A DNA stretch of 35,429 nucleotides from a virus (lineage: Duplodnaviria; Heunggongvirae; Uroviricota; Caudoviricetes). The notes below the pieces were generated by a model. That model did no database searches and was not told where the DNA came from. It saw only the letters and a program-made list of their open reading frames with translations. The stretch is taken from IMG/VR virus record IMGVR_UViG_2531839330_000011. The stretch is one strand, 5' to 3'. A program made the translations under genes and the position numbers. Below, in pieces: positions 1,008 through 34,729 of the stretch (the stretch's first letter is position 1; the number at the start of each line of letters is the position of its first letter).

Positions 1008-1355
1008 TTACTTATCACATAAATCAAATGCAGCCTTAGTGACATCCCCCAGGCTCTTTTTTAACCCTGGGGCGGCATCATTATCTAGCCAAAATGGATT
1101 ATTGTTATCTAACGGTAACGCACCAAATGTTTTACCTTTTATTCGAGCCAAACCTGTAAGTGCATATAACTTATTATCGTCAAAATTCATCACATAAGGA
1201 TTACCATCAAGACACTGTAATTGAACCTCATCAGTATTAAATGGCCATACCCCATTGAAACTCTCACGTTCAATAGTTTTAAAAGGCATTGCGACGGCGG
1301 AAAAAGAAAACATAGATAAAAAAGTAACTAATAGTTGAACCTTTTTTACTTTCAT
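1008..1355 (-). CDS. Small secreted protein (N-terminal signal peptide, two Cys), unknown function; lysogenic-operon cargo
   Basis: 115 aa. N-terminal hydrophobic signal (MKVKKVQLLVTFLSMFSFSAVA). AT-rich codon usage unlike flanking phage genes. RBS-like GAGGT upstream of the ATG at 1355. Tightly packed between int and the upstream gene. Confidence 0.6.
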   Translation of the reverse strand: MKVKKVQLLVTFLSMFSFSAVAMPFKTIERESFNGVWPFNTDEVQLQCLDGNPYVMNFDDNKLYALTGLARIKGKTFGALPLDNNNPFWLDNDAAPGLKKSLGDVTKAAFDLCDK

Positions 1356-1384
1356 ATCATTACCTCAATTTAGCTCAAGTAAGA

Positions 1385-2035
1385 TTACAAATTAAAAAAC
1401 GCCCTAGAAATGACACCGCCTACCAAAACCCCTACGCAGATAAAGAATATTATTTCTTTTGGATAAAGTCGGATTAATTCTGAAGCACGAAGTCGGACTT
1501 CTGGTAAGGTCGAACTCTCTGTGTGGCTTGATGCCGATTGTTGCTCTAACCACGACAATGCAGACTGTAACTGAGAACGAGTAAGATCGTTTAAACGTCC
1601 TGTACCGAAATTGATATGGCAATACCGCAGAAGTTTTTGTCGAAGTCCACAGTCTTCACTGTTACGTAGTAATAAACTTACAAGAGCCTTACAGGCATCA
1701 TGATCTTTACATCGCTCAAGCATTGCATGCAGAAAACTCTCCGCTGTTTTATATTGATTTACTGTCATATCATCAATACCAGCTACACCAATCTCCGCAT
1801 GTACTTTTTGCCAAATAATAAACGCTTCAGTATTGCTAGCTTCTGCAATAGCAGCAACCAAGCTATTTAGCTCCTTACGCTGAGCCTTAAGCAAAGGGCG
1901 ATCGTCATCATCATTATTCGAAGGGATTGCGATATTGACGGTATGAGAACCATCATATCGCTCTATCTGAATATTCTTTTCGTGAAAATCACGCCCAGCA
2001 ACGCGATTGTTTGAACCGTTTGAGTTGACGGCCAT
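1385..2035 (-). CDS. C-terminally membrane-anchored protein of unknown function; lysogenic-operon cargo
   Basis: 216 aa. Strong AGGGAGG RBS 12 nt after the repressor stop. Single C-terminal hydrophobic helix (IIFFICVGVLVGGVISRAFF). N-terminus carries SNNRVAGRDF, a near-copy of the repressor C-terminal motif GNNRIAGRDY. AT-rich. Confidence 0.65.
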   Translation of the reverse strand: MAVNSNGSNNRVAGRDFHEKNIQIERYDGSHTVNIAIPSNNDDDDRPLLKAQRKELNSLVAAIAEASNTEAFIIWQKVHAEIGVAGIDDMTVNQYKTAESFLHAMLERCKDHDACKALVSLLLRNSEDCGLRQKLLRYCHINFGTGRLNDLTRSQLQSALSWLEQQSASSHTESSTLPEVRLRASELIRLYPKEIIFFICVGVLVGGVISRAFFNL

Positions 2036-2047
2036 GTCACCTCCCTA

Positions 2048-2455
2048 CTATCCCCTACCCTTAGTTTCGTTATAGTCACGACCAGCGATACGGTTATTAC
2101 CACCAGAAATATTTAACTCACGTCCTGATGGCTGAGTTTCCTTTTCACTGATCGCACCTTTTAAAGCCCCAATCACCGCGTTTTTCACATCTAACGAAGC
2201 TGCTCGAAAGCGAGTAATCAACTCCTGCTCATCATCGTTATAAGTTTCAGGTGAGTGAATTCCCAACACAACATACTGAACATCAAGGCCAAAACGAGAC
2301 AGCGCTGCCAAATACGCAGCATCAGGAAAGCTATCTCCTTTCTCATATCTAAGCTGAGTTAGCTTTTTGACTCCACCAATGTCGCTCATGGCAACTTGAC
2401 TAAGTCCCAATCTTTCCCTTTCCTCACGCAACCGCTGACCAATATCATTTTTCAT
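2048..2455 (-). CDS. Prophage repressor, XRE/Cro-C1 type helix-turn-helix (CI/C-like immunity repressor)
   Basis: N-terminal HTH (IGQRLREERERLGLSQVAMSDIGGVKKLTQLRYEKG). Divergent from cox-like genes. Start taken at the internal Met (ATG 2455) because the longer ORF would overlap the divergent gene start. Confidence 0.8.
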   Translation of the reverse strand: MKNDIGQRLREERERLGLSQVAMSDIGGVKKLTQLRYEKGDSFPDAAYLAALSRFGLDVQYVVLGIHSPETYNDDEQELITRFRAASLDVKNAVIGALKGAISEKETQPSGRELNISGGNNRIAGRDYNETKGRG

Positions 2456-2465
2456 ACAAAAAACC

Positions 2466-2531
2466 TTGACAGGTATCTTTTTTGATACCAAAATGATTTC
2501 ACGAGCTATTAGATGATCACAATATACCACT
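2466..2531 (+). promoter_or_regulatory. Lysis-lysogeny switch region: TTGACA -35 hexamer (2466..2471) immediately followed by perfect palindrome GGTATC-N6-GATACC (2472..2489), a candidate operator and early rightward promoter
   Basis: Read directly from the sequence. Sits in the 76-bp divergent interval between the repressor and the first rightward gene. Confidence 0.5.
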
Positions 2532-4075: not shown

Positions 4076-4492
4076 ATGAACGCAAAAGAAAAAAATATTA
4101 TCAATACATTAAAAATAGTGTCAGCAGAGCAAGACAAGCTGTCCAGGGCAGCCCAGAAAGATAATCAACATATGGCAGCGCTTTACGCACTGACCATCGC
4201 AATAGCCGCCTCTGAAGCAGCCAAAGTTATTGAGGAACAGAGCAAAGAAATCGACACTCTTAAAACACAGTCAACAGTTGCAGCCATGAATCCGTCCAGC
4301 ATTGGACGCTGCATTTATATTCTTGGTTCAGCAATGATGCTGCAATACACCATTATTGCCGAACTGCACGGCAAATACCTGATAACGCCTTACCACACAA
4401 AAGAGTCAGAGCTTCTGACAAATCTCCGCCTGATAGAACGCTCTCAAGCTGTATTCATTGATGACGCGCAATGTGCCGTATTTAACGCATAG
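4076..4492 (+). CDS. Hypothetical protein, AT-rich (moron-like)
   Basis: 138-aa ORF. Preceded by a 90-bp non-coding gap and GGAG RBS. Visibly more AT-rich than the surrounding phage genes. Confidence 0.5.
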   Translation: MNAKEKNIINTLKIVSAEQDKLSRAAQKDNQHMAALYALTIAIAASEAAKVIEEQSKEIDTLKTQSTVAAMNPSSIGRCIYILGSAMMLQYTIIAELHGKYLITPYHTKESELLTNLRLIERSQAVFIDDAQCAVFNA

Positions 4493-4982: not shown

Positions 4983-5278
4983 GCACCATCAACCACCAGA
5001 AGCTACGCGAACTGGCATTTGCCCTGCAACGAATGGCAACGCCTCAAAAATTACTGGCATTTCGCGCAATGCTCTCGCCGTCTGCTGTGCTGGCACTGCT
5101 GGATCAGCTGGAGCACGCCAGAACCACGGCTCCTGCCATTCGCCTCACGCTCCATCATGAAATCGCTGATTTCTGCGCAACGCTGGGGGCACCTGGCGAA
5201 CCGGAAACGCCGGAAGCAATGCAGCAAGAGCTGCTGCAACGCATCGATAACGTTTTTGATTTTTTTCTGAACCAGTAA
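4979..5278 (+). CDS. Hypothetical early protein
   Basis: 99-aa ORF, operon-coupled. Confidence 0.45.
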   Translation: MSTINHQKLRELAFALQRMATPQKLLAFRAMLSPSAVLALLDQLEHARTTAPAIRLTLHHEIADFCATLGAPGEPETPEAMQQELLQRIDNVFDFFLNQ

Positions 5279-5289
5279 GAAACCAGAAC

Positions 5290-5600
5290 ATGCACACACA
5301 AAAAAACCGCTTGCCATGCCTCAATCGGTCAGGTTACATTTCCGCTGCAGCTCATAAAACGGGTGCCGGGATTCTCAACCCGATACAGAGCAAAGCGCAT
5401 AACCGCGCAAGCGGTTTTTTTGTGCGTACTGTATTGCCACGTCTTTTTCGCGTCAGAATTATGGCGGGGCGTACGGGGCCGACTTCGGTCGGGCCGGATT
5501 CTTTGCTCTCCGGTGTTGAGAACCCTGTACGTCTCGCCACCCCGAGATTCTCAACTCTGGATGGTGAGTTATTTCTATCACCGAGCAAAGAGGCCACACC
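5290..5600 (+). other. Highly structured non-coding segment (candidate ncRNA or terminator/regulatory element)
   Basis: 15-bp perfect inverted repeat AAAAAAACCGCTTGC (5300..5314) / GCAAGCGGTTTTTTT (5407..5421). Local hairpin CCGC-GCAA-GCGG followed by T7. Hairpin GGCCGAC-TTCG-GTCGGGCC near 5478..5497. Repeated ATTCTCAAC motifs at about 5380 and 5548 with an inverted copy near 5514. ORFs called across this interval lack protein-like composition. Confidence 0.35.
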
Positions 5601-5831
5601 ATGGCAGACCGCAAACAGCACCGCACTATCGCGGAGCGTCGTCACATCCAGACTGAAATCAACCACAGACTTTCCCGCGCATCACGCGTCGCGCAAATCA
5701 TGCACATCAATATGCTGCATGAGCGCAGCCACGCACTATCAAACATTTATTCCGCCTCTGTTTTCAGCTATCTGGCGGATGATCTGCACGAGCTTCAACA
5801 GCTCATCCAGCAGCAAAACAAACTCCATTAA
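5601..5831 (+). CDS. Hypothetical small basic protein
   Basis: 76-aa ORF with AGAGG RBS 8 nt upstream. Confidence 0.5.
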   Translation: MADRKQHRTIAERRHIQTEINHRLSRASRVAQIMHINMLHERSHALSNIYSASVFSYLADDLHELQQLIQQQNKLH

Positions 5832-5903
5832 TTCCTGTTCCGGGCCTTTCCTGCACCTTGCGGCGGGAGGCCTTCGCACATCTGTAACAAGAGGATTGCC
5901 GCA

Positions 5904-6269
5904 ATGATTCTCGCCAACGACTTTCTTGAATACCTGCTCAACACAGAGCGTGATCTTGCCGCTCGCGTACGTGATCGTTATGACATGTATCTGAAATCCC
6001 TGCCTGTACCGCAGCTCGCTGACGGAAAAATTGTTATTGATGGTCGCTACATGATTGACAGCCACGAGGGGAATTACAGGCTTTACCGCATTGAAGCCGG
6101 CACCCCGTCCGTTATTGGCATTTACCAGCGCCCATCCTCTGCGATCGTCGATGTGATTGCCGACAGCATCCGCATCACACACCACCATGCCGACACAGAA
6201 GACACTGTGCTGGAGATTCAGCGGCTGGCTGCCGTTTGCCGTGACACTCTGAACGGAATGACGAAGTAA
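5904..6269 (+). CDS. Hypothetical protein immediately upstream of replication gene A
   Basis: 121-aa ORF. Sits at the position P2 gene B occupies, but no similarity recognised. Confidence 0.5.
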   Translation: MILANDFLEYLLNTERDLAARVRDRYDMYLKSLPVPQLADGKIVIDGRYMIDSHEGNYRLYRIEAGTPSVIGIYQRPSSAIVDVIADSIRITHHHADTEDTVLEIQRLAAVCRDTLNGMTK

Positions 6270-6275
6270 ATCAGT

Positions 6276-9098
6276 ATGACGACAGAGTACATCAGGGACT
6301 GGCAACAACCGCGCCACGCAGTAGGACGTGAAGGAACGGAGATCCCCGCACCTGAATCCGCACTTTCCTCCTGGCTGGATGCCTACCGGGCAGAGAACGA
6401 ACGCCGCCAGGAAATGGCTGATGCGGCGTTCTCCGCCACACCGCTGGGCAACCTGATTAATAAAAGCCTGGACGCACAGGAAAAACAGGACAAAACCATC
6501 ACACTGGCCAGAGAAGCCAGAAAACAGGCACGCGGCGCGGTGGATGAAGCCATGGCCTCGCTGCGCCTGCTGCCATCCTATCTGCGCGATCCGCTTATTC
6601 GCCACCTCTCCTTCCTGCGCAAAAAACAGGAATCTGACCGCCAGAAAGGTAAAAAGAACCAGCAGGCTGAACGCTACGCGCGCGGGACCCTGCGCAAAAT
6701 ATTCGAACGTCTGGACCGCACCGACCACCGCTGGCTGACACCGGGTTATCGCTCCCTTGCCGGACGCGAACGCCTGGATGATTTGCTTTACCTCCCGCAG
6801 CTCAACAAGCACCAGATACAGACGCTGGCCACCATGACGGCGGCGATGTTCAGCAGCACCTTCGAAAAACTCTGCGATGGCTTTGGCGCGACCGATGGCG
6901 AGCTGACCATGGATGTAACGCTGAAGGCGTATCAGATGCTGGCCCGCATGGCGTTACACCTGCACATCATGCCTCCACATTATGACGCACTGACAACAGA
7001 TAAAGACCGGAGGAACGAACCGGACACGGAGCTGCTGCCGGGCGCAATCCTTCGCCTGACCTGTGCGGAATGGTGGAAACGCAAACTGTGGCTGTTACGT
7101 TGCGAGTGGAGAGAAGAACAACTCCGCGCCGCCTGTCTGGTTTCCAGAAAAACATCGCCTTATCTGAGCCAGGACGCGTTAAGCGAGTTTCGCGCACAGC
7201 GCGAGAAAACACGCGATTTCCTGAAAAGTTTCATGCTGGAAAATGAAGACGGGTTCACGATTGATCTCGAGACAGTGTATTACGCGGGAGTAAGTAACCC
7301 GGTTCACCGTAAGGCAGAAATGATGGCCACCATGAAGGGGCTGGAACTTCTGGCCGAAGCCCGTGGCGACAAAGCGGTGTTTCTGACTGTCACCTGCCCG
7401 TCAAAATACCACGCCACAACAGAGAACGGTCATCCGAATCCCAGATGGAACGGGGCCACCATGCGCGACTCCAGCGATTACCTGGTTAACACGTTTTTTG
7501 CGGCGGTCCGCAAAAAACTGAACCGCGACGGTCTTCGCTGGTATGGCATCCGCACGGGGGAGCCTCACCATGACGGCACCGTGCACTGGCATATGATGGT
7601 CTTTGCACATCCGGACGAGATTGAAACCATCGTGTCCCACGTCTGCGATATTGCCATTCAGGAAGACCGCCACGAGCTGGGCGATGACATAACTCCGCGT
7701 TTTAAGGCGGAGTACGTCGACGGCTCAAAAGGCACACCAACCAGCTACATCGCCACCTACATCGGAAAGAACCTGGACAGCCGCGCCGTGGATGGCATCG
7801 ACCCGAAAACGGGCAAGCCACGCGTTGACCACGAAACCGGAAAATTAATGGCCGAGAGCGTGGAACGCGCCATCGGCTGGGCGCGCCTTCACCGGGTCCG
7901 CCAGTTCCAGTTCTTTGGTATCCCCTCCCGTCAGGTGTGGCGTGAACTGCGCCGCCTTGCCAGCCAGATGGCACGCAACCCGGAAGGCCCACAACGGCTG
8001 AAAGATGACGCAATGGACGCGGTACTCGCTGCCGCTGATGCCGGATGTTTTGCCACCTACATTGAAAAACAGGGTGGCGTGCTTGTTCCACGCAAGGACT
8101 ACCTGATTCGCACCGCCTACGACCTCGCAGATGAGCTGAACGATTACGGCGAACAGAGCGTACAGATTTACGGGATCTGGTCACCACTCATCGGGGAATC
8201 CTCCCGTGTGTGCACGCATCCGGATAACTGGAAGCTGGTAAGACGCAAACCGGAAGCGGAAGACAGCGCCCGCGAAAATGGTTTTGACCTTCAGGGCGGC
8301 CCTGCCGCCCCTTGGACTCGTGGCAATAACTGTCCCCGTGTACAGGAAACGAACAACAACGGGACAGAACAGCCGGAAGAACGGCCAGCACCGTGGCCGC
8401 AGCTCCCTGATGGCGTTGAAGTGAACGAATGGATGCGCTCACTGAAACGGCACGAACGCCGGGCGCTGATGCGTTCGCTTCGTGACAAACAGGCAAAAAA
8501 CAGCAGTGATGAAATGCAGAGCTGGACACAGAGCCGCAAACAGCAGCGGCCTTTGCCTGATAACCACGAATTACTCGCTAAAGAATGGCGGGAATCTGCC
8601 GAATCTCTCGGCCTGCATATCGGTGAACAGCAGATGCAGCACCTGTTACGGGGCGGCAGCCTGTACGTTGACGGCAGCATCATTGCACCGCAGGGATTTG
8701 AAATTGTACGCAAACCGGATCCCAGCCCGGACAGCCGAATCACGCAGCTCTGGCAGCGCCTGAGCCGTAATCACGGCGTAAGCAGCACAGAGATCCGCCA
8801 TAACCCGGTCGCCAGCTATCTGGAACAACTGGGGGCATCAGACCCCGAAGCCGCCGCACGTCTGGCATCCACACTTCAGCAGGACCAGAACACCATGAAA
8901 ACCCCCGTTACCGTGCTTTCTGACATGCTGCGCGCCATCCGTGACGCAGAGCACGCACAGAGAATCAGTGAAACCACTGAACGCGCCCACCGCAAAGCAG
9001 ACCTGCTGCGGGGTAGCCTGACCAATGGAAACAAAAAACAGACAGAAACGGGACTCACAAATCCCGTAAATGAGCAAAAAACGCGCCGCGATATATGA
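6276..9098 (+). CDS. A: Rolling-circle replication initiator endonuclease (P2 gpA family), 940 aa
   Basis: HUH motif (GTVHWHMMVF) followed by a paired-tyrosine motif (TSYIATYIGKN), typical of P2 A / phiX174 A superfamily relaxases. Synteny after the early operon. Longer than P2 gpA as I recall it. Confidence 0.88.
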   Translation: MTTEYIRDWQQPRHAVGREGTEIPAPESALSSWLDAYRAENERRQEMADAAFSATPLGNLINKSLDAQEKQDKTITLAREARKQARGAVDEAMASLRLLPSYLRDPLIRHLSFLRKKQESDRQKGKKNQQAERYARGTLRKIFERLDRTDHRWLTPGYRSLAGRERLDDLLYLPQLNKHQIQTLATMTAAMFSSTFEKLCDGFGATDGELTMDVTLKAYQMLARMALHLHIMPPHYDALTTDKDRRNEPDTELLPGAILRLTCAEWWKRKLWLLRCEWREEQLRAACLVSRKTSPYLSQDALSEFRAQREKTRDFLKSFMLENEDGFTIDLETVYYAGVSNPVHRKAEMMATMKGLELLAEARGDKAVFLTVTCPSKYHATTENGHPNPRWNGATMRDSSDYLVNTFFAAVRKKLNRDGLRWYGIRTGEPHHDGTVHWHMMVFAHPDEIETIVSHVCDIAIQEDRHELGDDITPRFKAEYVDGSKGTPTSYIATYIGKNLDSRAVDGIDPKTGKPRVDHETGKLMAESVERAIGWARLHRVRQFQFFGIPSRQVWRELRRLASQMARNPEGPQRLKDDAMDAVLAAADAGCFATYIEKQGGVLVPRKDYLIRTAYDLADELNDYGEQSVQIYGIWSPLIGESSRVCTHPDNWKLVRRKPEAEDSARENGFDLQGGPAAPWTRGNNCPRVQETNNNGTEQPEERPAPWPQLPDGVEVNEWMRSLKRHERRALMRSLRDKQAKNSSDEMQSWTQSRKQQRPLPDNHELLAKEWRESAESLGLHIGEQQMQHLLRGGSLYVDGSIIAPQGFEIVRKPDPSPDSRITQLWQRLSRNHGVSSTEIRHNPVASYLEQLGASDPEAAARLASTLQQDQNTMKTPVTVLSDMLRAIRDAEHAQRISETTERAHRKADLLRGSLTNGNKKQTETGLTNPVNEQKTRRDI

Positions 9099-9174: not shown

Positions 9175-10134
9175 ATGAAAATTTGTATCGACGACGGCTC
9201 CACCAACATCAAGCTGGCATGGACTGAGAACGGCGAACGCCGCAACGCCATCAGCCCGAACAGCTTCAAGTCGGAATGGTCTGCGCCGTTCGGTGGCACG
9301 CAGCCCGCGAACTACATGCTTGATGGCGTGCGCTATGGTTTTGATCCGGTCAGCGATCGCTTTGTCCAGACGACCGACACGCAATACCAGTACAGCGATG
9401 TGAATGTAATCGCCATTCACCACGCGCTGGTCAAATCAGGCATCACACCACAGGAAGTGGATGTGGTTGTCACCCTGCCACTGAGCGAATATTTCGACAC
9501 AAACGCACAGCCGGACATGGCCAACATCAACCGCAAAAAAGCGAACGTCATGCGCCCGGTGGAGTACCAGAACGGCGAAGCATTCACTATCCGTAACGTA
9601 CGGGTTATGCCTGAATCCATTCCGGCTGGCTTTAAGGCACTGGCTGACATGAGTCCGTTTGAATCCCTGCTGATTGTGGATTTGGGCGGAACCACGCTGG
9701 ATGTGGCAAAGGTTCAGGGGCAACTGGCAGGTATCAGCCAGGTGTTTTGCGATCCACACGTAGGCGTTTCTCTTATGGCAGATGCCGTACTGTCGGTGAT
9801 GGCCACTAACGGTATGCGCACCAGTCACCACATCGCCAATACCATTATCGAACATCGCCATAATGAAGCATGGCTGCGCCAGCACATCCACAATGACGCG
9901 CATTACGCCAGCCTGATGGCGGTTATTCGTGAAAAGGAAGAAACACTGAAACAACGCGTGATCCGCGCGCTGGCGGTTTTTTCGGGTTACGGGCGGGTGA
10001 TGGTTGTCGGTGGCGGGGCGGAGATTGTGGCACCCGCTATCCGCGAAGCCTGCGGAGTTAATGCGACTTTCATCGCGGACGGGGTGCCACAGTTTGCTCT
10101 GGTTAATGGGCTGTACGCAATGGACAAGGAGTAA
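9175..10134 (+). CDS. parM: ParM/StbA-like actin-type ATPase (type II plasmid partition motor homologue), 319 aa
   Basis: Extensive collinear similarity to plasmid R1 ParM as recalled: IDDGSTNIKL, ISPNSFK, QYSDVNV-A-HHAL, NINRKKAN, VMPESIPAG, DLGGTTLD, GGGAE, LVNG. AAGGA RBS before the ATG at 9175. Confidence 0.85.
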   Translation: MKICIDDGSTNIKLAWTENGERRNAISPNSFKSEWSAPFGGTQPANYMLDGVRYGFDPVSDRFVQTTDTQYQYSDVNVIAIHHALVKSGITPQEVDVVVTLPLSEYFDTNAQPDMANINRKKANVMRPVEYQNGEAFTIRNVRVMPESIPAGFKALADMSPFESLLIVDLGGTTLDVAKVQGQLAGISQVFCDPHVGVSLMADAVLSVMATNGMRTSHHIANTIIEHRHNEAWLRQHIHNDAHYASLMAVIREKEETLKQRVIRALAVFSGYGRVMVVGGGAEIVAPAIREACGVNATFIADGVPQFALVNGLYAMDKE

Positions 10135-34426: not shown

Positions 34427-34513
34427 TGGTACCCGGAGCGGGACTTGAACCCGCACAGCGCGAACGCCGAGGGATTTTAAATCCCTTGTGTCTACCGATT
34501 CCACCATCCGGGC
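34427..34513 (-). tRNA. leuZ: tRNA-Leu (anticodon UAA)
   Basis: Reverse complement GCCCGGATGGTGGAATCGGTAGACACAAGGGATTTAAAATCCCTCGGCG...GGGTACCA matches E. coli leuZ as recalled, with long variable arm and encoded CCA. Confidence 0.93.
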
Positions 34514-34525
34514 TCGGGAAGAAAG

Positions 34526-34599
34526 TGGAGGCGCGTTCCGGAGTCGAACCGGACTAGACGGATTTGCAATCCGCTACATAACCGCTTTGTTAACGCGCC
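34526..34599 (-). tRNA. cysT: tRNA-Cys (anticodon GCA)
   Basis: Reverse complement GGCGCGTTAACAAAGCGGTTATGTAGCGGATTGCAAATCCGTCTAGTCCGGTTCGACTCCGGAACGCGCCTCCA matches E. coli cysT as recalled. Confidence 0.93.
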
Positions 34600-34653
34600 A
34601 AATTCTTCAGGCCTTTCAGCCAGACATCCGCTTGAGGCCGATGTCTTTTAAAC

Positions 34654-34729
<76 letters not shown>

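Follow-up and report, generated by a model that had tools for sequence, protein, structure and literature searches.

What is encoded in an interval that lies among the early genes of a prophage, folds extensively as RNA and reads poorly as protein? We addressed this question for positions 5290-5600 of IMG/VR record IMGVR_UViG_2531839330_000011, a 35,429-nucleotide (nt) stretch of DNA referred to here in its entirety as the window. The whole window is a P88-like E. coli prophage (Xuanwuvirus, Peduoviridae, P2-family). The original prediction, made from the sequence alone, proposed that the interval is non-coding and structured, and that it is either a phage regulatory RNA or processing/attenuation element, or a small inserted element with terminal inverted repeats. 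The regulatory RNA idea proves correct: the interval contains a leader with a terminator, followed by an embedded C4/CI-like antisense RNA and its targets. We propose, with a probability of roughly 0.85, that it is an antisense-RNA immunity cassette of the P4/P1/N15 type, an 'IsrK-C4 immunity system', located in the middle of the early operon and acting through the mechanism outlined below; most likely, the cassette holds an anti-repressor gene and the replication genes off in this P2-like prophage. Such cassettes are well described, and what is new is the occurrence of one in a phage genus where it has been neither annotated nor discussed. The papers describing P88 and PhiSM mention neither the RNA nor the epsilon homologue encoded downstream of it.

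A covariance-model scan of the whole window with Rfam at curated thresholds, the check suggested along with the original prediction, returned two full-length matches within 5290-5600. These are isrK (RF01394; 59.5 bits against a cut-off of 50, model positions 1-77 of 77) and the C4 antisense RNA (RF01695; 78.5 bits against a cut-off of 45, model positions 1-87 of 87). The elements of the cassette, including the targets complementary to the two C4 recognition sequences a' and b', are:

5311-5340, plus strand: predicted sigma-70 promoter (promoter scan), with -35 TTGCCA at 5311-5316, an 18-nt spacer and -10 TACATT at 5335-5340
5347-5421, plus strand: IsrK-like leader or small RNA (the P4 'seqA' region), the extent of the RF01394 match
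5369-5379, plus strand: target a1, GGAUUCUCAAC, complementary to a', in the loop of leader hairpin 2
5387-5395, plus strand: target b1, AGAGCAAAG, complementary to b', in the leader linker
5401-5421, plus strand: intrinsic terminator (terminator scan and Rfam isrK model), with its hairpin at 5401-5416 and U7 at 5415-5421
5457-5544, plus strand: C4/CI-like antisense RNA, the extent of the RF01695 match
5462-5478 / 5523-5539, plus strand: C4 outer stem
5479-5492, plus strand: C4 UUCG hairpin (loop 5484-5487, stem 5479-5483 / 5488-5492)
5493-5514, plus strand: second C4 hairpin, whose loop carries b' (about 5499-5509)
5515-5522, extending to 5525, plus strand: single-stranded a' of C4
5544-5561, plus strand: target a2 (P4 'seqC'-like), with UUCUCAACUCUGGA at 5548-5561, complementary to a' and the adjacent stem strand (5509-5522)
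5583-5592, plus strand: target b2, GAGCAAAGA(G), complementary to b'
5601-5831, plus strand: gene for a 76-aa homologue of P4 epsilon (helper-derepression, anti-repressor family; Pfam PF25738 and BLASTP)

The minimum-free-energy (MFE) fold of the C4 segment is the fold of the Rfam model, and the UUCG tetraloop hairpin noted in the original prediction is present as the first inner hairpin of that model. The leader folds into two 5' hairpins, with target a1 in or beside the loop of hairpin 2 and target b1 in the linker, and ends in a U-rich 3' tail, its one visible feature relevant to Hfq binding. Its GCAA-tetraloop hairpin followed by U7, also called beforehand, is AACCGC-GCAA-GCGGTT with the T-run directly behind it, and corresponds to the terminator of the isrK model. 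Folding z-scores against shuffled controls are -4.9 for C4, -2.5 for the IsrK part and -5.0 for 5285-5430, in agreement with the earlier description of the region as dense with RNA structure. An acceptor-like stem followed by A-CC(C) at 5539-5542 resembles, at the level of sequence, the 3' end of a tRNA. The Rfam motif c4-a1b1 (RF03163) was not matched in the window (11.6 bits against 46.7; P4 itself scores 44.1), and the a1/b1 targets are present nonetheless. The predicted promoter matches nine of twelve consensus positions, and its predicted start near G5347 falls on base 1 of the isrK model. Neither hexamer varies in the alignment of relatives described below (alignment A1), and P4, N15 and VT2phi_272 have, by inspection, a comparable promoter at the same relative place. 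A scan for LexA boxes around the cassette gave chance-level matches with none near 5290-5600, and does not support an SOS-controlled promoter. A second promoter-like site at 5434-5462 (plus strand; TTGCCA, 17-nt spacer, AATTAT) is probably a chance match: its -35 hexamer is not constant (TTGCCA or, in many relatives, TCGCCA), and a transcript begun at this site would lack part of the C4 stem.

The sequence complementary to a' recurs as ATTCTCAAC, which occurs twice on the plus strand (5371-5379 and 5547-5555) where 0.32 occurrences are expected in the whole window. This was originally described as a motif repeated in both orientations; the two direct copies stand, while the inverted copy (GTTGAGAA, 5515-5522) matches at eight of nine bases only. 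A second triple, which had escaped the earlier description, consists of GAGCAAAG at 5388-5395 and 5583-5590 together with its complement at 5501-5508. Target b2 overlaps the Shine-Dalgarno sequence AAGAGG (5588-5593), located 8 nt before ATG 5601 of the epsilon-like gene, and because b2 covers this site, pairing with b' would block translation of that gene. The read-through RNA is itself predicted to bury the Shine-Dalgarno sequence, since its MFE fold contains the cis helices b'-b2 and a'-a2. Predicted duplex energies average -33 kcal/mol for cognate pairs and -22 kcal/mol for non-cognate pairs; these values are inflated by flanking stems, and plain co-folding is blind to loop-loop kissing, so we use them as weak support only.

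Comparison across related prophages puts these pairings to the test. We collected 80 IMG/VR loci, phage P88 and one RefSeq strain, which together represent 44 distinct versions of a 330-nt region at 82-100% identity. Almost all of the variation among these 44 versions falls in six patches, which are a1, b1, b', a', a2 and b2. At least five a-types and eight b-types exist, and a- and b-types reassort; one natural C4 type that is non-cognate to the window's, for example, carries b' GTTCTTGTGTAG and a' ACTGCG. We counted base pairs on alignment A1 and compared the scores with slid controls. For a1-a' and b1-b', 91.8% of cells are paired (100% for b1-b'), with a covariation score of 0.571 against 0.146 for the best slid control and 10 double-change pairs. 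For a'-a2 and b'-b2, the corresponding values are 90.5%, 0.475 against 0.140, and 9 double-change pairs; the b'-b2 helix is 97.8% paired and contributes 5 compensatory pairs. The cis folds of C4 and IsrK are 95.0% paired and score 0.085 against 0.048 for the best slid control, with 5 double-change pairs. Among 41 distinct C4 sequences, the outer stem and UUCG hairpin are 100% paired and the second hairpin 89%, with 5 compensatory pairs. The antisense-target helices therefore contain 19 double-change pairs, far above slid controls, which answers the earlier call for a search for compensatory changes in related prophages. Such covariation is direct evidence, from evolution, that pairing between antisense and target is the selected function.

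The isrK-C4 tandem is detected at Rfam threshold in P88, Citrobacter PhiSM, prophages of E. albertii and Salmonella, N15 and an Stx phage, and in P4 too. Among the relatives of the window's prophage, the protein repressor is either P2 C-type (more than 20 distinct sequences) or an unrelated helix-turn-helix (HTH) protein like that of the window, and RNA types assort independently of repressor family. Because the RNA types vary independently of the protein repressor, the cassette represents a separate immunity determinant. P4-like satellites also show combinatorial reassortment of a' and b', with 13 combinations in 80 loci, and combinatorial loop types are thus a trait of the family.

The gene whose ribosome-binding site (RBS) is covered by b2 encodes a 76-aa protein that matches the Pfam Derepression family (PF25738; E = 2.2e-8, above cut-off) and is 30% identical to P4 epsilon over 66 aa (BLASTP, E = 2e-10). 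It is under purifying selection (pN/pS, the ratio of nonsynonymous to synonymous polymorphism, is 0.27). The P4 protein acts as anti-repressor towards the C protein of P2, and its gene is located downstream of CI within a single operon; because the order is the same and the 76-aa protein is an epsilon homologue, the isrK-C4-epsilon segment is syntenic between a satellite and a phage of its helper family. This synteny ends after epsilon, because the next gene in the window, orf121, has no similarity to P4 ORF151. The flanking genes are:

ending at 5278: gene for a 99-aa protein, upstream of the cassette
5904-6269, plus strand: orf121, 121 aa, phrog_3237
6276-9098, plus strand: gene for a gpA-type replication endonuclease, 940 aa, Pfam Phage_GPA (E = 3e-129)

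The cassette thus lies inside the early operon, with early genes on both sides and the 76-aa basic protein, the 121-aa protein and the endonuclease encoded downstream, a layout that bears out the placement originally described, upstream of a small basic protein and the replication gene. Both orf121 and the gpA gene belong to the same operon as the cassette and are probably subject to polarity from it.

We propose that a constitutive promoter, predicted at 5311-5340, starts transcription near 5347, and that most transcripts would end at the terminator to yield an IsrK-like RNA of about 75 nt, as homology to Gifsy-1, P4 and N15 suggests. Read-through RNA would carry the C4/CI-like segment, from which RNase P and 3' trimming may, as for the homologous P1 c4 and P4 CI, release a stable species of about 80 nt. 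In this RNA, b' and a' would pair with a1/b1 in the leader and with a2/b2 downstream, pairings for which both complementarity and covariation are observed. By analogy with P1 icd/ant and P4, pairing at b2 in cis or in trans would block translation of the epsilon-like gene, and lost translation and/or enforced termination would then shut off orf121 and replication gene A. The a/b sequences would set the specificity of the system, and the cassette would thus add an RNA-based layer of immunity, a second determinant that does not depend on the protein repressor.

Several points weigh against this model. For this particular prophage, we infer the promoter, the terminator efficiency, the processing and the repression alike. 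The cassette is located inside an operon, whereas in P4 it stands at the operon start, and lytic transcripts from the early promoter would have to escape it. Standard co-folding, which cannot model kissing loops, gives little or no energy gain in trans. The short IsrK RNA of Gifsy-1 is an activator rather than part of a repressor circuit (PMC4825925), so that the leader's contribution here could be of either sign. Finally, it is uncertain whether the epsilon-like protein is an anti-repressor of its own prophage's repressor, because it is at least 88% identical in all 80 loci, including hosts with unrelated repressor families.

The proposed cassette shares its architecture with several known systems. 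Like the window, the P4 immunity region (PLE promoter - seqA - CI RNA/seqB - seqC) contains isrK and C4 in the same order and on the same strand, followed by an epsilon-family gene. Its promoter, like the one predicted in the window, lies directly upstream of the leader, its leader terminator has a similar ...TTTTTTTGTG tail, a2 directly follows CI, and b2 covers the Shine-Dalgarno sequence (AGGAGG in P4) of the first downstream open reading frame (ORF); combinatorial a'/b' specificity types are found in natural P4 populations as well. In contrast to P4, the host of the window's cassette is a full P2-family phage and not a satellite, epsilon itself is the first regulated ORF with no intervening kil/eta genes, and the spacer between leader and antisense RNA is 35 nt rather than about 107 nt. 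The a' loop is of opposite sense in the two systems (GUUGAGAA in the window, AUUCUCAC in P4), of the two, only the window has an upstream arm that complements the terminator, and epsilon is only 30% identical. The immI regions of P1 and P7 (c4 - icd - ant) are the founding members of the Rfam C4 family, and their loop sequences determine heteroimmunity between the two phages. They too combine a'/b' with a1/b1 and a2/b2 targets and have b2 at the RBS of the gene that comes first downstream; the function they control is an anti-repressor, as it would be in the window. The window differs from them in lacking an icd homologue, in having a putative anti-repressor of another family, and in a leader that matches isrK and not c4-a1b1.

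The name 'IsrK-C4 immunity system' is used by Barquist et al., who equate IsrK with P4 seqA and C4 with the P4 CI RNA and list P4, P1, P7, N15 and lambdoid prophages as carriers (PMC3632133). In N15, the anti-repressor region immA is controlled by a small processed RNA, as cited in PMC4488713, and forms a secondary immunity layer beside a protein repressor (PMC4488713), as we propose for the window. The N15 region, which controls antA-icd-antB, carries tandem isrK and C4 above Rfam cut-offs, and its a' and a2 (about 1655-1720 of the N15 sequence analysed, L087) are identical to window positions 5512-5530 and 5544-5561 over 17-19 nt. The two elements differ in b specificity, and it is conceivable that they engage in partial cross-talk. 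Unlike the window, N15 is a linear plasmid prophage, and its downstream genes are unrelated to epsilon. In the Gifsy-1 version (isrK - orf45/STnc1160 - anrP), Hershko-Shalev et al. regard IsrK as structurally homologous to P4 seqA and describe STnc1160 as a CI-like RNA that is released by processing (PMC4825925). That locus has an IsrK leader with its own promoter and leaky terminator, a processed C4-like RNA in the read-through part, a self-inhibited long transcript and an anti-repressor downstream (PMC4825925), an arrangement that the window would share. Gifsy-1 differs in being a lambdoid prophage with an anti-repressor of another family, and in having a short translated orf45 coupled to anrP, where the corresponding frame in the window has 148 codons.

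A further feature of the interval is its inverted repeat:

5294-5314, plus strand: left arm, ACACACAAAAAAACCGCTTGC (repeat search)
5407-5427, plus strand: right arm, comprising the terminator loop and 3' half, the U7 tract and GUGCGU (repeat search and fold)

The 21-nt arms are 95% complementary and lie 92 nt apart. The perfect 15-bp repeat originally called at 5300-5314 / 5407-5421 is present and was under-called, as the perfect core in the window spans 18 bp (5297-5314 / 5407-5424), with 15 bp in all relatives. The A7 tract of the left arm lies at about -47 to -41 from the predicted start, which we take to be where a proximal UP element would be, and the 3' end of the arm overlaps the -35 hexamer. 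Because the left arm lies upstream of the predicted start, it would be present only in RNAs from the upstream early promoter. In the 44 distinct relatives it is invariant from 5297 onward, even beside unrelated upstream DNA. In the MFE fold of 5285-5430 (-51.3 kcal/mol) the arms pair and the terminator hairpin is lost, and in the fold of 5347-5421, the RNA from the cassette's own start, the terminator hairpin forms. Since predicted RNA started upstream loses the terminator and RNA started at 5347 retains it, promoter-dependent read-through or an RNase III site is suggested. The left end of the repeat also marks a mosaic joint at about 5280-5297: several lineages have unrelated DNA with different upstream genes before about 5297, and homology across them resumes exactly at the left end of the arm.

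Other readings of the interval start from this repeat or from the long ORF that crosses it. The idea that the repeat bounds a small mobile or inserted element (5294-5427), raised in the original prediction for 5300-5421, draws on a perfect 18-bp inverted repeat flanking a 92-bp segment, and we reject it as barely credible. The arms enclose the conserved IsrK element and its promoter, also found in P4, N15 and Stx phages that do not have the left arm; the segment is contained in all 85 relatives located and in six further records at Rfam threshold, and no relative shows an empty site, and flanking target duplications were not searched for. No extra copy was seen in the window, where ATTCTCAAC is confined to the cassette and GAGCAAAG occurs once more at 4240. 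It is somewhat less implausible, and still rather doubtful, that the arms form a functional RNA helix only in early-promoter transcripts, acting as a terminator override that lets lytic RNA reach gene A or as an RNase III site. The absence of the left arm from cassette-initiated RNA, the two alternative folds and the exact end of arm conservation at the mosaic joint are consistent with this idea, as is one relative (L018) in which the A-run and the T-run are both one base shorter. Invariant arms, however, provide no covariation support; the sole variable position is 5409, where the window has A and most relatives have C or T, with no compensating change at 5312, and homopolymer-length variants in two other relatives (L053 and L077) are uncompensated as well. 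The A7 tract and TTGC can also be explained as an UP-like element and a -35 hexamer and the T7 as a terminator tail, and the local 6-bp hairpin should form first kinetically. A search for the terminator-complementary left arm in other carriers gave no comparative support: it is absent in P4 and VT2phi_272, and N15 has an 8-nt partial match only. A species-level genome scan with alignment of the epsilon-like protein found only 3 loci (in E. albertii, in Salmonella and in a contig labelled Vagococcus), which add no diversity to this comparison because all share identical arms. A role for the inverted repeat thus stands as a secondary and unproven hypothesis. Finally, the region might encode an 'Ash family' protein or transcriptional regulator, either as the 205-aa ORF 5290-5907 or as its 148-codon part from AUG 5461. 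The ORF does match PHROG 'transcriptional regulator' families (E down to 1.5e-14) and, below cut-off, Pfam PF10554 (Phage_ASH; E = 0.0017, 19.2 bits against 26). The frame beginning at a conserved AUGG at the C4 5' end (AUG 5461) runs through C4, the whole epsilon-like gene in another frame and the spacer to a TGA that overlaps the ATG of orf121 (ATGA 5904-5907), and is open with the same end in 78 of 80 relatives. AUG 5461 lies about 115 nt from the predicted start, a distance similar to the roughly 107 nt between the isrK start site and orf45 in Gifsy-1, which is translated (PMC4825925). Yet the region shows no coding constraint, with pN/pS over 5347-5598 at 0.98 in the ORF frame and 0.90 and 0.85 in the others and variable sites evenly spread over codon positions (28/31/31). 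Where the frame overlaps epsilon, pN/pS is 1.63 as opposed to 0.27 in the epsilon frame, ATG 5290 is replaced in several lineages, and the patch changes that are compensatory in RNA are radical in protein. The open frame from AUG 5461 is not statistically compelling, because the chance of a stop per substitution is 3-5% and the variable sites are linked in haplotypes. PF10554 matches the translated isrK-CI region of P4 (locus L083, 8365-8692, minus strand) equally well, and because the product of that region is an RNA, these Pfam and PHROG models appear to describe translations of a conserved RNA locus. The original doubt about the long ORF is thus upheld, and the protein homology that might have overturned it exists as database matches that reflect the translated RNA locus, in an unconstrained ORF. 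A constrained-protein reading is largely refuted, and we regard protein coding as very unlikely.

Two further alternatives accept the RNAs and assign them another role. By analogy with Gifsy-1, the short IsrK-like RNA might exert positive control, acting as a decoy for C4 through a1/b1 or refolding a silent mRNA to switch on the epsilon-like anti-repressor and induce the prophage. In Gifsy-1, the read-through isrK-orf45-anrP mRNA is translationally silent, and the short IsrK activates it and induces the prophage (PMC4825925). In the window, a1/b1 are perfect decoys for the C4 loops and covary with a'/b', the read-through RNA is predicted to be self-sequestered, and P88 is inducible by mitomycin C (PMC5285337). 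On the other side, the equivalent leader serves termination and immunity in P4 and N15 (PMC3632133 and the discussion in PMC4825925), and no LexA box or other signal input is seen near the promoter. We consider positive control possible, if on balance unlikely; activation of this kind by the leader would be compatible with a repressive IsrK-C4 cassette as an added layer. An improbable alternative is helper-encoded decoy immunity, an idea that Barquist et al. raised for lambdoid prophages (PMC3632133): the prophage C4 would act against P4-like satellites, or other phages with a C4, that enter the cell with matching targets, and would so shield the helper from hijacking. P2-family phages are helpers of P4, and the a'/a2 identity between window and N15 noted above would fit this idea. 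However, none of the 13 a'/b' combinations in the 80 P4-like loci is shared with P88-like types, and the cassette's own cis targets, which covary perfectly with C4, are enough to explain its conservation.

Reading the interval as an IsrK-C4 immunity cassette has consequences for how these prophages are understood and annotated. It identifies a second immunity determinant in P88-like prophages and points to an RNA layer, rich in natural specificities and separate from the protein repressor, on which superinfection immunity and induction would depend in this P2-family genus. It also shows that neither the P4 epsilon family nor its RNA control is confined to satellites. A more speculative extension, to which we give little credence at present, is that a helper-type P2-family phage natively carries a full P4-style cassette, that the RNA immunity and derepression gene of P4 share ancestry with, or were captured from, a helper-lineage module, and that the cassette additionally has an early-transcript override or processing arm and a translated leader frame from AUG 5461 that couples or protects replication-gene expression. 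If true, the upstream arm and the long translated leader frame would be features that have not been described for P4, P1 or N15.

Correct naming of the cassette also removes false proteins. In the records of E. coli strain E8 (RefSeq), P88 and Citrobacter PhiSM, no RNA gene is annotated under this segment; the interval corresponding to 5278-5601 carries either nothing or a doubtful coding sequence (CDS) in the RefSeq and phage records examined, and 5601-5831 is labelled 'derepression protein'. The P88 record has a CDS on the opposite strand over the isrK-C4 region (5033-5221, minus strand), and other phage records carry CDS labels such as 'transcriptional regulator' in the equivalent region; such CDSs are probably spurious. 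The protein models that match the translated isrK-C4/CI locus are PF10554 and phrog_995, phrog_6928, phrog_821, phrog_29966 and phrog_3960, and these families are probably an RNA gene translated by gene callers. This matters for pipelines that use them as markers: PF10554 serves as the P4 'epsilon' marker in PMC8628076, and the actual epsilon family is PF25738.

The segment 5200-5900 is 91-92% identical to Escherichia phage P88 and other Xuanwuvirus phages, and is present in 1,280 of 5,426 complete E. coli genomes, or about one quarter. The contig labelled Vagococcus sp. WN89Y (L086), a Gram-positive, contains a P88-like prophage segment with the full cassette, and its label is probably due to assembly contamination or mislabelling. 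The remaining features of the window are:

left end of the window: integrase
in the window: divergent repressor/early-operon junction
in the window: P2-type head and tail genes
34427-34729, minus strand, at the end opposite the integrase: cluster of tRNA-Leu(taa), tRNA-Cys(gca) and tRNA-Gly(gcc)

The tRNA cluster is probably host DNA flanking the prophage. The repressor module is swapped among close relatives: the window has, at 1385-2530 (minus strand), the HTH protein (called as a 160-aa ORF) together with a DUF2511 gene and a 216-aa protein whose partial match to the Flk model falls below threshold, where P88 has its repressor at 1170-1469 (minus strand of L002). P88 and many other relatives encode diverse P2 C-type repressors that share a C-terminal GQ(I/V)xPxLxxxG motif. 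Downstream of the replication endonuclease, the gene at 9175-10134 (plus strand) has a P88 counterpart that is labelled plasmid segregation protein ParM; a 'partition protein' comes next in P88, and such partition genes are unusual cargo in a P2-like prophage.

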